Source: Escherichia phage PECP14. Taken from it: a stretch of 64,000 nt of DNA. This document shows positions 2,789 through 13,090 of the stretch, in pieces. Numbering within the stretch: the first letter of the stretch is position 1; each line of letters opens with the position of its first letter. A model generated the notes under the pieces. That model was not told the DNA's origin and did no database searches. It was given only the letters and a program-made list of their open reading frames with translations. The stretch lies in the sequence record OQ870555.1. One strand, given 5' to 3'. The translations under genes and the position numbers were made by a program.

Positions 2789-3790
2789 TTATTCTGTTTC
2801 GGCGCTTTGAGTAAAGGTAGAAATGTCAATACCTTTTACCATTTCATCGATCATTTCAGCAATATTGAAACTCTGTACCATTTCCAACATTGCCGCTTCC
2901 ATTGCCGCGCCTGCTACCGCTTTCGCTTTCGCATTAGTCGGGGCGTACTGGTCAACCGCTACACTCAGCAGGTTAGCGATCACTACACGACCAATCGGCG
3001 TATCAATATAACCTTTAATCATAAACGGCGCTTTTTTCGCCGCTACTTTTGTGATTTGAGTCAGTGCAATTTTACCTGCTTCCAGTTTAGCAGCGTTAAC
3101 AACGGCGGATTTATTAGCGGCAACGATAGAAGATACTTTAGACATAATATTTCCTTTATTTTCAGTAGTTTGCGCATTTGCGCTTGAAGTTTGAGAGTTT
3201 ACAGCCTGTTTTGTTACGTTGTCAAGCGGTAAAAGTGTAAATCCAGCGTTTGCAACGTTTGATTCATTCCCATACTCTAAATAATCGTTAGGGATCAACA
3301 TGTTACCGCTAGCGCGTTCAAAACACAATACGCCAGTTGTTTCGATTGCGTCACTATCAGCACCTTTATAACTGGATGATAATTCACGCCAGATACTATT
3401 TAATAACGATCCGACACTATCAAGTCTGATACTATTTACTTTTGTTGCTGTTACCTGCTCTTTTTCTTGCACGTTATATAATCGCGCAATGTAACCATTA
3501 TGAGACTCACTATAACCAACAATGATAAAATCAATATCAGTTCCCCGACTATTACGGAAAATGTGATAATCACGGTTGAAAATTACTAGCGCCCTTGTCT
3601 GGTCTAGTAATAGCGTGAAATCATCAACTGAATAATGAGTATCATTATTGTCTAAAATTTCATCGTGAATCTTTTCTACAATAGTAGCGGTATGTTGTAC
3701 GCTTGCCGCACTACTACCATCTAGCAGGTTGCGCAAACTACCCTTAATAATAGTGGCGTTTGCTGGTACTGCAATTCTTACAGTAGACAT
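2789..3790 (-). CDS. hypothetical pre-early protein (333 aa)
   Basis: Long ORF with GAGGGAG upstream of the ATG; first gene of the leftward block; no motif recognised. Confidence 0.6.
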   Translation of the reverse strand: MSTVRIAVPANATIIKGSLRNLLDGSSAASVQHTATIVEKIHDEILDNNDTHYSVDDFTLLLDQTRALVIFNRDYHIFRNSRGTDIDFIIVGYSESHNGYIARLYNVQEKEQVTATKVNSIRLDSVGSLLNSIWRELSSSYKGADSDAIETTGVLCFERASGNMLIPNDYLEYGNESNVANAGFTLLPLDNVTKQAVNSQTSSANAQTTENKGNIMSKVSSIVAANKSAVVNAAKLEAGKIALTQITKVAAKKAPFMIKGYIDTPIGRVVIANLLSVAVDQYAPTNAKAKAVAGAAMEAAMLEMVQSFNIAEMIDEMVKGIDISTFTQSAETE

Positions 3791-9042: not shown

Positions 9043-9777
9043 ATGAATCAAGTCAACATGAATATTACCCGCACTTTCCCGCATATTTCCCGCGTTATGA
9101 TTTGGGATTTAGACGGAACGATTATAAATTCTTTCCATCGTGTAGCGCCTTGCTTTGACGATAACGGGAATTTAGATTTAGTTAAGTATTCCCGCGAAGC
9201 CTGCAAACATGAATTAATTATGCAGGATTCCTTATTACCATTGGTTGAATATATGCGCCAATGTATGAATGATCCCAATACCTTAAACCTTATTTGTACC
9301 GCTCGCTTAATGGGTAAATCTGATTATTATTTCTTGCGTAAACAAAGTCTAAGAGGGCGCGGAAATAGTAATATTCGCGTATTTTCCCGCGATACATTAC
9401 ATAAATACTTTGATGCAAATAAGGTTAGCGAAATATACCACAGTAAAGACGCTGTATATAAATCTTATTACTTTGAACTGTTTAAACAGCTATACCCTAA
9501 CGCTGATTTTACGATGATTGATGATCATAAAGGTGTATTATCGGCGGCGGCAAGTGCTGGATTTAAAACGCTGGACGCTCAAGCCGTTAATGATATCCTA
9601 TCAATCGGGGTAACATTGATCGGTGAAACCTTTATTGATGAATCGTTAGATGATGATAACGATTATCAATTCCTAGCCGAACGTTTAAAAATGTGTTGGG
9701 AAGGTATGACCGAGGAAGAACGCGCGGAATATAGTACCACACCGCAACAATTCATTGATAAATTAAAAGTTGCCTAA
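9043..9777 (+). CDS. dmp: 5'-deoxyribonucleotidase, HAD superfamily (244 aa)
   Basis: HAD motif I (IWDLDGTII) near the N-terminus; length matches my recollection of T5 Dmp. Confidence 0.75.
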   Translation: MNQVNMNITRTFPHISRVMIWDLDGTIINSFHRVAPCFDDNGNLDLVKYSREACKHELIMQDSLLPLVEYMRQCMNDPNTLNLICTARLMGKSDYYFLRKQSLRGRGNSNIRVFSRDTLHKYFDANKVSEIYHSKDAVYKSYYFELFKQLYPNADFTMIDDHKGVLSAAASAGFKTLDAQAVNDILSIGVTLIGETFIDESLDDDNDYQFLAERLKMCWEGMTEEERAEYSTTPQQFIDKLKVA

Positions 9778-9795
9778 CAATTAAAAATAAAATAG

Positions 9796-9830
9796 TCACG
9801 GTGTGTAACGATAACATGCCGTGACTATTA
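9796..9830 (-). terminator. Rho-independent terminator (stem TAGTCACGG / CCGTGACTA, then TTTTATTTTT on minus strand)
   Basis: 9-bp stem plus T-run; closes the leftward small-gene operon and lies just after the dmp stop. Confidence 0.55.
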
Positions 9831-9935
9831 GCTTGCTAAGTACCGGGGCGGTAATGAGACTCATTCTCATCTAGGGAACCTCTGGGCACACCTTCATGTG
9901 TAATCTTAGGAGATTTGGCAAAAGTCAAATTAGCG

Positions 9936-10151
9936 CTATTTACGGACTGACTGCTTGAGAATGGACTGCCATAGAGGGTCAGTCTTAACAAGATTATTGA
10001 TGTACTCAATAGCTTCATCAAATCTCATAAATCCTTCTGGAATTTCCGAAGACTTAGGAAGAACCTGTAGTAACTCCTGAGTGATGCCCATCTTTTCAAG
10101 TTCTTCTTGGGTTATCTCAAACTCCCCGAAAAACTTCCCGAATTCTTTCAT
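9936..10151 (-). CDS. hypothetical small soluble protein (about 71 aa)
   Basis: ATG at 10151 overlaps the TGA of the upstream gene (ATGA) and is preceded by AGGAGAAG; the longer listed ORF (to 10232) is probably an upstream extension. Confidence 0.4.
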   Translation of the reverse strand: MKEFGKFFGEFEITQEELEKMGITQELLQVLPKSSEIPEGFMRFDEAIEYINNLVKTDPLWQSILKQSVRK

Positions 10152-10393
10152 GAGCTTCTCCTGTCTACTGGCTTGTCTCCCGATTCTGACATACGAAATC
10201 TCCTCCGCGACGCCCGAGATCCATCCGACCACTCTCGCTCAAACTCCTCCCGTTTCTCCGCAAACCTCCGCTCCCTTTCCGAAAGCTCCCGCGATACTCC
10301 CGCAACATATTCACGATGCTTGTTAATAGCCCCGAGTGTTCCGAAGATTCCCGCAAGTACCCCGATAATGAAGATAGCTACAAAGCTAAACAT
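10148..10393 (-). CDS. small membrane protein (81 aa; N-terminal transmembrane helix, charged Arg/Glu-rich tail)
   Basis: N-terminus MFSFVAIFIIGVLAGIFGTLGA is hydrophobic; start overlaps the stop of the 34-aa ORF (TAATG). Confidence 0.45.
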   Translation of the reverse strand: MFSFVAIFIIGVLAGIFGTLGAINKHREYVAGVSRELSERERRFAEKREEFEREWSDGSRASRRRFRMSESGDKPVDRRSS

Positions 10394-10497
10394 TATTTAT
10401 CTCCCCGCAGCTTACGTTCGATACGAGCTAAATGGTTATCTAGAATGCACTGCCCGATAATTACCACAACTAGTAAAGCAATAATCACTACTTCCAT
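10393..10497 (-). CDS. very small transmembrane peptide (34 aa, MEVVIIALLVVVIIGQCILDNHLARIERKLRGDK)
   Basis: Hand-translated (below the 60-aa ORF cutoff); start and stop both overlap neighbouring genes by TAATG. Confidence 0.3.
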   Translation of the reverse strand: MEVVIIALLVVVIIGQCILDNHLARIERKLRGDK

Positions 10498-10682
10498 TAT
10501 AACCACCCCGCCATAGCTGCTAACCAAAAGAGTACAAAGATAAAGAATAATACAGTTCCGAATCCGAAACTATTTATCCAACTTTCGTATACTTCTCCGC
10601 GTCTGTTCTTTCTTCTGTTGTCGTTTGACATCTCTTTGCTTCTCCTGTAAGCCTGGTATTTGGAAGATTCTAGCAATTGCAC
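10497..10682 (-). CDS. small tail-anchored membrane protein (61 aa or shorter; C-terminal transmembrane helix)
   Basis: C-terminus FGFGTVLFFIFVLFWLAAMAGWL is hydrophobic; overlaps the upstream 104-aa ORF, so the exact start is uncertain. Confidence 0.4.
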   Translation of the reverse strand: MQLLESSKYQAYRRSKEMSNDNRRKNRRGEVYESWINSFGFGTVLFFIFVLFWLAAMAGWL

Positions 10683-10884
10683 GAACCATTACGACTGTCC
10701 CGATAAGATCCATTACTTCGTCGAAGCCGGATTCTTCTAGTAAGAAGGATGTTCCCATCACGTCTTCCATTGTATCTTCTATGACGTCTTGAATGATTTC
10801 GTTAATTGCATCATGTATTGCTTTAGTCCTGGGATCTATTTCAAAGTTAACAGGTTCCTGAAAGGACTTTTCTTCATCTTGCAT
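10570..10884 (-). CDS. hypothetical acidic protein (104 aa)
   Basis: ORF immediately downstream of llp on the same strand; acidic N-terminal half. Confidence 0.4.
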   Translation of the reverse strand: MQDEEKSFQEPVNFEIDPRTKAIHDAINEIIQDVIEDTMEDVMGTSFLLEESGFDEVMDLIGTVVMVRAIARIFQIPGLQEKQRDVKRQQKKEQTRRSIRKLDK

Positions 10885-10958
10885 TGTGTTTGCTACCTGT
10901 ACCTCATCCCAGAAATAAAAATTTTTGTTTACTTCGAGATCTTTTTACTTTATACTAA

Positions 10959-11225
10959 TTACAAGTGACCAGATTGTTCTAGTTTAAATTTGCAATCGCC
11001 ATATTTGAGGTCAAACTGTGACAAATCCCACCACCCAAACTTAGTGCGTAACTGAGTTTTAGGGAATCGGTAGCCCACAGTACGTGCTTCTCGAATATCT
11101 AAAGCATAGTGTTCTTCACCAACATGACCATAAGACTTCACGTATGCCTTACAGAATGGCTCGGGAGCCGGTACACAACCCGTCAACACTGCTGCTGCAA
11201 CTACGATGGCTAGTAACTTTTTCAT
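10959..11225 (-). CDS. llp: Llp-like lipoprotein (receptor-blocking superinfection-exclusion protein, 88 aa)
   Basis: Signal peptide plus lipobox (AAAVLTGC); divergently placed next to the receptor-binding-protein gene, as I recall for T5 llp/oad. Confidence 0.75.
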   Translation of the reverse strand: MKKLLAIVVAAAVLTGCVPAPEPFCKAYVKSYGHVGEEHYALDIREARTVGYRFPKTQLRTKFGWWDLSQFDLKYGDCKFKLEQSGHL

Positions 11226-11254: not shown

Positions 11255-11283
11255 ATTATAGCAAAATAGAGGGATCTAAGCAA
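11255..11283 (-). promoter_or_regulatory. Early sigma70-type promoter for llp (TTGCTT-N17-TATAAT)
   Basis: Minus-strand -35 TTGCTT at 11278-11283 and -10 TATAAT at 11255-11260 with a 17-nt spacer and AT-rich downstream region. Confidence 0.6.
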
Positions 11284-11308: not shown

Positions 11309-13090
11309 ATGAGTTTTTTCGCAGGAAAATTTAGTGATGGTAAAACTGTATTATCTCTAAACGCTGCTAATGGTGGTGATATAAATCAGCACTACTCTCC
11401 AAATACTAATAGTATCTTCCACTCAGATATGCCCTTCGTCCTAGTTGATGGGACTTATGAGGCTGCCCTAGGTGATGCAGGTAATGGGTACTTTGTTACT
11501 CAGATGCCTTGGGATATTATAAACATTAAATCCAATGATCCTGGTAGAGTTATATTAACTGCTATTGAGATAAATGGTACTCATAGGGGTTTCCTTAATG
11601 GTACACAATCTCAGGTTGGCCAGTTCTTATCATTCTTTGAAGACCAACCACGTGCTGGTGCTGAACTGGCTATAACATCTGCTTTTGCAATCGGTGATAG
11701 TTTAGCTCACGGTACTTATATATATAATGGTGGTCTTGGTCATGAGGAATCTATTGCTAGGCAAGGAACTGGTGGTACTTTACTACAATCTTCCGGTTTC
11801 CAGATCTTTAGACCTGGTGGTGTTTCCGCAGGTGAAGCTATTTCCAGAGCCTGGGGATTAATGGGCTTTCCTACTGGTGTTTCTACTGTTCCTATAGATG
11901 GTGGTAACGCCGATTATTGGGAACCTAACTGGCAAGCGCCTGTTGGTTCTGCTGGTAGAGGCCATGATTGGTTTTATGTTTGTAATTCTAATATTCGTGG
12001 CTTCGCAGGTAAGAAAGGTGTACTACCAGATAACGTAAACGTTCTTTACCAATCTCCTGCATATCCAGAAAAAATATATGTTTGTAGAGGTTCTACTTCT
12101 AATATGGCTGCTCAGTCTGCTAGAAAGGTATATGTACAGGACTGGTATAACGTTACGCCAACTAAGGTTATTTGGTATGTGCTAAATCTGCGCTATTCTA
12201 ATGGTAGTATGGGGGTTTCTGGTAATCCATTTACCGGTTCAGATATCCTAATATCTCCATCTAACTTTACTATTAAAGGTGTTAGCCTACCAAATACAGG
12301 CTATAAATTTATTAACCAGAATGCTTTCGGAAACTTAGGCTATCGCCCTGATATGGAGTATGTTGGTAATAACGCCGCGTATACCGGAGTTTTTGGTGAT
12401 AATACTGCACGATGTGAATTTATTGGCTCTAGTAACGGTGGGTTGTGGTCACCCGTTAACTATGGGGGTGCAGCTTCTCAAATTAGCCTATATAAATTTG
12501 GTGTAGGTAAACAATGGTATGTAGATACTAATACCAACTCCATTGGTAATGAACATGGACCTGTCTGGAGTCCTAGTACTGTACCCCTCAGGTTATTCCC
12601 AGGCAACGTTGCAAGTACTTATGTAGGGGATGATATAACTCCATCCTACCCTGGTGCTGGTGACTTCTACACACCTTTGGCCACAGTTTGGTTGGGATTA
12701 CCAAATGCTCACTCTACTGTTATATTAACTACTGAAGTTATTATGGGTAATCTTAATACTGCTGGAATGCCTGTGCGTACTTATGGTGGTAGTGCTTGGC
12801 AGGTACAAGGTAGACGTCAACAAAGTTATACAGCTGGTGATGGTGTATTCCATCAGATTCTTACTCTGCCACCTGGCTATCTAGTACCTTATCACAGTAC
12901 AACTTCCTATAGTTATACACAAACTTGGGCTAGTAGGCCAGATGAGTTTGCTTTCCGTAGGAACGGATATATTTATACTATTAAAAACCTTGGTAATGGC
13001 AACGTTGAGTTGGGTGTTATCATTCACGCTGCAGAAGCGGCAGCTGTTTTCTTGCCAAGACTACGTGTAACAGTTCAACGCCTAACCTAA
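11309..13090 (+). CDS. receptor-binding tail protein (pb5-like, 593 aa)
   Basis: Large Gly/Asn/Thr-rich protein divergent from llp and just upstream of the terminase genes; assigned by synteny. Receptor specificity cannot be read from sequence. Confidence 0.7.

Follow-up and report, generated by a model that had tools for sequence, protein, structure and literature searches.

Predicted membrane-protein genes kept behind the llp early promoter in T5-like phages

Do the very small open reading frames (ORFs) that follow the lipoprotein gene llp in T5-like phages form a gene cassette of their own, and what could their products do? We approached this question in a stretch of 64,000 nucleotides (nt) of Escherichia phage PECP14 (sequence record OQ870555.1), referred to below as the window. 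It comes from a T5-like Epseptimavirus, and the region in question is about 97% identical to that of the Salmonella phages fuchur, Stitch and HMD-P2. A preliminary description had listed five small ORFs behind llp, and all five lie on the minus strand, which is also the strand of llp, at the place given for them. Here, we find that one early promoter drives llp and then a series of tightly coupled small genes, ending at a terminator in the long terminal repeat. The constant part of this operon is not llp but the cassette of genes for predicted membrane proteins of 44, 34 and 81 amino acids (aa), which form its core (coordinates are collected in Table 1).

The cassette, and the 34-aa peptide in particular, had been presented as new. 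In fact, annotations of it in T5 and in genomes nearly identical to the window go back decades, and its recognition is a correct description and not a discovery. The T5 record NC_005859 lists T5.159 (42 aa), T5.160 (35 aa), T5.161 (64 aa) and T5.162 (81 aa) after llp, each with the remark "single transmembrane domain", and the T5 llp record of 1994 (X75922) already has the same genes as orf1–orf4. The 34-aa ORF is a homologue of T5.160 and is annotated in many related phages, among them fuchur and HMD-P2. T5 has the genes in an identical order at the equivalent place, flanked by llp and the right terminal repeat, and they are joined by the same overlapping start and stop codons. As measured by tblastn, the 44-aa protein is 82.5% identical to T5.159, the 34-aa protein 87% identical to T5.160 over 30 residues, and the 81-aa protein 72% identical to T5.162 over 67 residues. 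The window differs from T5 in lacking T5.161, in carrying an intact 104-aa gene, which is a pseudogene in T5, and in having an extra 71-aa gene.

We compared the cassette across 27 loci, i.e., those of the window, fuchur, Stitch, HMD-P2, T5 and 22 IMG/VR genomes. T5 is among the latter as well and is thus counted twice. The T5.159 family (44 aa) is intact at all 27 loci, the T5.162 family (81 aa) is likewise present at all of them, and the T5.160 family (34 aa) is found at 26. The core genes keep one order throughout, and at every locus they overlap by 1–13 nt; two apparent gaps are filled by an overlapping 51-aa paralogue of T5.160. Synonymous differences reach 0.2–0.5 per site, and the ratio of non-synonymous to synonymous differences (dN/dS) is 0.14–0.45 for every gene, with a value of 0.17 for the 34-aa gene. 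The cassette consists of real genes under purifying selection, and the coupling itself is conserved. These data bear directly on the simplest alternative, namely that the ORFs are non-functional and represent chance reading frames or decaying remnants in the 3′ untranslated part of the llp transcript. Such a reading could point to the very short products, to the omission of the 44-aa gene from some records, and to the neighbouring 104-aa gene, which is truly decaying in most relatives. However, the core ORFs are intact at 26–27 of the 27 loci despite a synonymous difference of 30–49%, their dN/dS is 0.14–0.38, and their ribosome-binding sites and overlapping junctions are conserved. The non-gene explanation is therefore excluded by the conservation data.

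The junctions and gene starts in the window required some correction. The 44- and 34-aa genes share one base in TAATG at 10497, the 34- and 81-aa genes share one base in TAATG at 10393, and the 81- and 71-aa genes share four bases in ATGA at 10148–10151. The coupled TAATG/ATGA arrangement described before is thus present at these three junctions, but not between the 104- and 44-aa genes, which are joined by a 62-nt out-of-frame overlap (10570–10631). Moreover, the first membrane protein had been taken for a tail-anchored protein of 61 aa, with a GTG start at 10682, and is really 44 aa long. Its ATG at 10631 is preceded by an AGGAG ribosome-binding site 10–15 nt upstream, the PHROG 8596 profile aligns to residues 22–61 only of the longer ORF, and all 27 homologues begin at the point of ATG 10631. 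The 44-aa gene is omitted in several Epseptimavirus records, probably because of its overlap with the 104-aa gene.

According to the preliminary description, the small genes share the early promoter of llp, and this is borne out by several lines of evidence. The promoter recurs unchanged in Stitch and is conserved in T5 and in loci of the BF23 type, as found by pattern search, and the T5 records have an annotated promoter at the corresponding place upstream of llp. We take it to resemble T5 early promoters such as PN25. A scan of the window combined with RNA folding gave no convincing terminator and no conserved promoter between llp and the cassette; the spacer between llp and the 104-aa gene forms only a weak A/U hairpin without a U-tract (z-score −1.5). 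The H8 (locus L007) and S124-like (L008) phages, which are of the FepA type, have no Llp-type lipoprotein gene at this locus (around 1874–2036). There, a promoter (TTGTCA-17-TATAAT in H8, TTGTCA-17-TATACT in S124) and a similar leader stand directly before the 104-aa gene and the cassette. The cassette therefore persists behind the same type of promoter in phages devoid of llp. At the other end of the operon, the terminator lies about 58 nt inside the terminal repeat, counted from the inferred edge of the repeat, and points towards the end of dmp; a repeat is marked in the T5 record X75922 at a place that matches this terminator. Since the terminator is inside the terminal repeat, the same hairpin is also present near the physical left end of the packaged genome.

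Expression of related genes can be followed in the Tequintavirus Bas33, for which RNA-seq values at 20 min after infection are available as transcripts per million (TPM) in two replicates per gene (PMC13250531, Dataset S1). The sequencing data are public under PRJEB101990. The llp gene bas33_0192 reached 219 and 127 TPM, the gene of the 51-aa T5.160 paralogue (bas33_0190) 162 and 137, the T5.161 homologue (bas33_0188) 462 and 408, and an inserted HNH gene (bas33_0186) 525 and 444. The T5.162 homologue (bas33_0187) gave 22 and 13 TPM, and the two smallest genes, bas33_0189 and bas33_0191, gave about 1. The region as a whole thus shows transcript levels like those of llp at 20 min (PMC13250531). 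This alternation between high and low values among overlapping genes of 108–246 nt is probably an artefact of read assignment. In the presence of daunorubicin, when only pre-early products are reported to be made, the TPM of all Bas33 cassette genes were approximately zero (PMC13250531). The llp-like levels, together with their loss under daunorubicin, indicate that the cassette is co-transcribed with llp after second-step transfer; this is well supported, short of proof by end mapping.

Is the cassette then a partner of Llp? The window llp product has a signal peptide with a lipobox cysteine and a family match, its gene is divergent from the receptor-binding gene, and its relatives are annotated as receptor-blocking or Cor proteins; by these features it is a putative member of the Cor/Llp type. 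When receptor types are compared, the receptor-binding protein falls to 25–30% identity and Llp is non-homologous, whereas the membrane proteins remain 72–100% identical. In other words, the receptor-binding protein and Llp have been exchanged among the FhuA, BtuB and FepA types, while the cassette has been kept throughout. Since it is conserved regardless of the receptor type, the cassette does not partner Llp in a receptor-specific manner. To bind and block FhuA, Llp is sufficient by itself (PMC9586334), and thus the membrane proteins are not needed for that block either. What the comparison adds to the old annotation is this constancy of the cassette, which llp does not share, and its retention behind the same kind of promoter where llp is missing.

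Table 1. Features of the llp operon and its surroundings in the window (aa, amino acids; E, expectation value).
Feature	Position	Strand	Remarks
dmp	9043-9777	+	end of terminal repeat
Intrinsic terminator	9783-9829	-	11-bp-stem hairpin 9829-9791, then UUAUUUUU; -17.9 kcal/mol, z-score -3.2 (RNA fold)
61-aa TTG ORF, probably spurious	9836-10021	-	no family match; out-of-frame overlap with 71-aa gene; spans terminal-repeat boundary
Boundary of long terminal repeat and unique genome	~9887		repeat lies to the left; placed by alignment with the annotated Stitch repeat
71-aa acidic soluble protein	9936-10151	-	PHROG 20937, E 2.7e-50
81-aa predicted membrane protein, T5.162 (orf4) homologue	10148-10393	-	PHROG 6447, E 8.1e-46
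34-aa predicted membrane peptide, T5.160 (orf2) homologue	10393-10497	-	PHROG 6369, E 2.5e-23
44-aa predicted tail-anchored protein, T5.159 (orf1) homologue	10497-10631	-	PHROG 8596, E 1e-27
104-aa acidic protein, isoelectric point 4.8	10570-10884	-	PHROG 16810, E 1e-67
llp, 88-aa lipoprotein precursor, putative Cor/Llp receptor-blocking type	10959-11225	-	lipobox LTGC, Cys17; PHROG 1119, E 9.6e-23
Early sigma-70 promoter of llp operon	11255-11283	-	-35 TTGCTT 11283-11278, 17-nt spacer, -10 TATAAT 11260-11255, A-rich stretch upstream
pb5-like receptor-binding gene	11309-13090	+	after cassette, divergent from llp

We next consider what the three core proteins look like. The best 19-residue Kyte-Doolittle windows score 2.3–2.8, with one transmembrane segment in each protein, and all three are predicted to be single-pass (bitopic) inner-membrane proteins. 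Judging from hydropathy, the 44-aa protein has a basic N-terminus with five lysine or arginine residues and a C-terminal transmembrane helix followed by just four residues; the 34-aa protein has an N-terminal helix and a basic tail of 15 residues; and in the 81-aa protein the helix begins after four residues and is followed by a tail of 58 residues, of which 17 are lysine or arginine and 13 aspartate or glutamate. In the 81-aa family the helix residues G11, G15 and G18 are invariant, and the charged helix leads to a near-invariant motif, FEREWSDGSRASRxRFR. The name of a small membrane-protein cassette is therefore apt for these three, but not for the 104- and 71-aa products, which are not membrane proteins and whose genes are often lost in relatives. 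When the positive-inside rule is applied to the flanking charges, every tail is placed in the cytoplasm: the charge distribution suggests that the 34- and 81-aa proteins are N-out/C-in and that the 44-aa protein is N-in and tail-anchored. With these topologies, essentially all residues outside the membrane would be cytoplasmic.

Small size, a single membrane pass, charged tails and early synthesis would also suit regulators of lysis timing or membrane integrity, be it antiholin-like proteins, holin partners or proteins that seal the membrane after DNA injection. Holin and antiholin partners have a similar small, single-pass architecture with charged tails. However, T5-like phages possess a separate lysis cassette with the holin, the endolysin and both spanins (PMC4342426). 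No holin match was obtained in PHROGs, Pfam or NCBIfam, and no spanin profile matched in PHROGs. The neighbours of the cassette are llp, the receptor-binding gene and dmp, with no endolysin gene alongside. We thus regard a role in lysis control as improbable. The locus also has a certain likeness to the Rz/Rz1 spanins, in that an outer-membrane lipoprotein gene shares an operon with genes for N-terminal-helix proteins with charged helical tails. Yet the topology predicted here is the opposite one, the tails being cytoplasmic, and the Llp lipoprotein binds FhuA (PMC9586334). We rejected the spanin identity, as the proteins are predicted to be N-out/C-in and not N-in/C-out, and the phages have their own spanins in the lysis cassette (PMC4342426).

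What we tentatively propose, with less than even confidence, is that the cassette encodes a cytoplasm-facing inner-membrane complex with an accessory, receptor-independent role at the cell envelope, the likeliest being a block of DNA entry. In this proposal, coupled translation would supply the three core proteins in a fixed proportion, and their invariant small-residue helix motifs would let them assemble into one hetero-oligomeric complex in the inner membrane; it is the combination of coupling and motifs that suggests complex formation. Synthesis of the complex would begin only after entry of the complete genome into the cell. It could then block or seal the inner-membrane step of DNA entry by later-arriving phages, which is the weakest step of the scheme. 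Such a block would complement the receptor-specific one exerted by Llp, with the soluble 104- and 71-aa proteins as possible optional additions. The function as such is a guess made from the partner in the operon, the time of expression, the dispensability and the lack of dependence on receptor type.

There are precedents for proteins of this kind. T4 Imm and Sp and HK97 gp15 are small, early, dispensable phage membrane proteins that act in superinfection exclusion at the inner membrane, and the role suggested for the cassette would resemble theirs as a receptor-independent block complementing a receptor block. Searches of Pfam, PADLOC and NCBIfam showed no sequence or family similarity of the cassette proteins to them. 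In the CRISPRi-ART screen of T5, llp and T5.159–162 were all scored "Not Fit", i.e., dispensable in that assay (PMC11879866), which fits an accessory role comparable to that of llp.

Several points weigh against the proposed entry block. The same screen also scored virion-class genes, e.g., ltf and N4, as not fit (PMC11879866), so that the dispensability result is weak evidence. What speaks for a role in exclusion or host takeover, as the preliminary description suggested, is gene position and nothing more. The predictions leave almost nothing exposed to the periplasm, in contrast to inner-membrane exclusion proteins with periplasmic domains and to the Imm, Sp and gp15 proteins. No homology to any exclusion or defence family was found in PADLOC, Pfam or NCBIfam, and both the topology and the complex formation are predictions only. 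Finally, the Bas33 RNA-seq counts are not strand-specific and are near zero for the tiniest genes (PMC13250531).

One could also imagine a receptor-independent gate in the inner membrane which shuts the route of later phages once the phage's own genome is fully inside, an idea we consider unlikely. Such a gate might interfere with the channel of the injected tape-measure protein pb2, or alternatively it might disable the TonB-ExbB-ExbD energiser common to the outer-membrane receptors of T5-like phages. The membrane cassette would then be the ancient, constant part of an exclusion operon, and Llp an exchangeable, receptor-specific add-on.

The predicted cytoplasmic position of all soluble parts lends itself to another explanation as well. 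The proteins could be membrane tethers that recruit some host or phage factor from the cytoplasm to the inner membrane, by means of conserved cytoplasmic motifs such as RRGEVYESWIN (44-aa protein) and FEREWSDGSRASRxRFR (81-aa protein). The factor might be a protease, e.g., FtsH, a component of a stress response, or phage DNA and replication proteins; phi29 p16.7 offers an analogy for the membrane tethering of the latter. The 81-aa family has the shape of a charged helical spacer ending in a short near-invariant motif, and the T5.161 family and the 51-aa T5.160 paralogue add coiled-coil tails, which would fit this function. However, domain searches detected no DNA-binding or other domain, and the dispensability in the T5 knock-down screen argues against a core role in replication. 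Tethering is a possibility that we hold to be rather doubtful.

The accessory genes of the operon have a history different from that of the core. The 104-aa gene is intact at 7 of the 27 loci, and in T5 and most other phages it is a pseudogene with stop codons or truncations. The last part of the T5 remnant (locus L004, 3212–3379) persists, apparently because it carries the ribosome-binding site and the N-terminus of the overlapping T5.159. The 104-aa protein is predicted to have four helices and a basic C-terminal tail (AlphaFold predicted local distance difference test, pLDDT, 71). In the H8 and S124 records it is called a "receptor blocking protein", apparently a name given by position only. 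We considered and rejected it as a receptor blocker: it lacks both a signal peptide and a lipobox, it is an acidic, helical protein, and in the window it co-occurs with a true Llp. The 71-aa gene is found at 6 of the 27 loci, and its product is modelled as a small helical domain (pLDDT 69). Some records label it a homing-endonuclease remnant, which we also rejected, as it is unlike the HNH enzymes inserted there elsewhere and has no such domain.

As to T5.161, whose 64-aa homologues have a membrane helix and a coiled coil, it is missing at position 10393 of the window exactly from start codon to start codon, with the TAATG coupling intact. It is present at 17 of the 27 loci; the other 10, which belong to both T5-like genera, lack it just as cleanly, a pattern suggestive of repeated loss or exchange. 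Altogether, the locus is a landing site for homing endonucleases and has repeatedly lost the T5.161, 104-aa and 71-aa genes. At loci L005, L009 and L021 (about 3180–3716), as well as in Bas33 (bas33_0186), an HNH homing-endonuclease gene directly follows the T5.162 homologue, its insertion point falling at the final 14 residues of that family. These 14 residues are variable and occur in several forms, and the form tracks the downstream neighbour, i.e., the 71-aa gene, an HNH endonuclease gene, or nothing. H8-like phages (L005/L007, 2434–2781) have a truncated endonuclease-like ORF between the 104-aa gene and T5.159. Furthermore, loci L011 and L026 (2555–2710) and Bas33 (bas33_0190) contain an extra 51-aa gene between T5.159 and T5.160, which overlaps its neighbours by one base on each side; this is the T5.160 paralogue mentioned above, with a longer coiled-coil tail.

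A locus that readily gains and loses genes and takes up homing endonucleases might be expected to hold counter-defence factors, here directed against some membrane-associated system for abortive infection or exclusion that belongs to the host or its prophages. It would agree with this that the genes are accessory, occur in a single phage lineage and can be dispensed with in a K-12 laboratory host. However, the three core genes are near-universal and well conserved, unlike typical counter-defence genes with their fast turnover. PADLOC, whose library is one without anti-defence proteins, found nothing at E ≤ 1 for any of the six proteins and hence no similarity to defence-system proteins. We therefore give counter-defence only slight credence.

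Remote homology searches and structure prediction, which had been suggested as a way to a function, yielded no domain or fold match beyond the proteins' own families. With Pfam, PADLOC, NCBIfam and PDB sequence profiles nothing exceeded the threshold, and only phage-specific PHROG families matched. Foldseek searches with the AlphaFold models of the 104- and 71-aa proteins gave no PDB match at E ≤ 0.001, and in the viral library only the own family was recovered. Word-indexed searches placed the 81-aa family in 38 clusters, each with an identity of 70% or more and each from T5-like phages, and with the 104- and 71-aa proteins they returned T5-like phage sequences only. An exhaustive profile search with the 81-aa family through 1.84 billion representative proteins found five clusters, all with E ≤ 1e-10, the best being a relative already found, and tblastn located the 81-aa gene in 440 phage records, essentially all T5-like. 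As the matches are confined to T5-like phages, there are no remote relatives from which a function could be borrowed, and in the literature we found no paper that assigns one to T5.159–162. A resemblance to PspB was followed up and rejected: the T5.161 homologue of fuchur scored E 0.008 and 16.5 bits against a cut-off of 90, and no window protein matched. The T5.161 family profile gave 3.8 bits against an approximate sequence of E. coli PspB. PspB, an envelope-stress membrane protein with an N-out membrane helix and a cytoplasmic coiled coil, is similar in design to T5.161, a gene which the window lacks.

T5 is a classic model phage whose relatives are widely used in the biocontrol of Salmonella and E. 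coli, and this operon, present in essentially every T5-like genome, has remained "hypothetical" for thirty years. If the cassette did provide a second, receptor-independent layer of exclusion or membrane control, a trait conserved throughout a phage subfamily would have its explanation. The design of phage cocktails would be affected too, since one T5-like phage could block another that uses a different receptor.

In the orientation of the window, the long terminal repeat comes first, with dmp at its end, followed by the cassette and the pb5-like gene. Given a repeat boundary near 9887, no other unique coding sequence lies between the cassette and the right terminal repeat, an arrangement shared by T5. 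The range previously given for the cassette extended to 9836 on the left, a limit that belongs to a TTG ORF of 61 aa which is probably spurious and not a gene. A promoter-like site on the minus strand (TTAGCA-16-TATAAT, 10496–10523, 10 of 12 matches) has its −10 element across the junction where the 44-aa gene stops and the 34-aa gene starts. T5 has TTTAAT in place of the TATAAT, and since the element is thus not conserved there, we did not count the site as a feature; it may be a chance occurrence or a genus-specific internal promoter. Rfam has no RNA family in the region.

A comparable arrangement, which counts in favour of the envelope complex proposed above, occurs outside the T5 set in a distant relative, the Sugarland-like Klebsiella phage vB_Kpn13-P2 (locus L027, 5361–6044). 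Its genes 141 and 142 are not detectably homologous to the T5 set, and the arrangement differs in comprising two genes only and no lipoprotein gene. They nevertheless occupy the same position, divergent from the receptor-binding gene and beside dmp, with a TTGTCA-17-TATAAT promoter ahead of both. The proteins, of 74 and 151 aa, each have an N-terminal membrane helix and a coiled coil, and the longer one ends in a serine-rich disordered tail.

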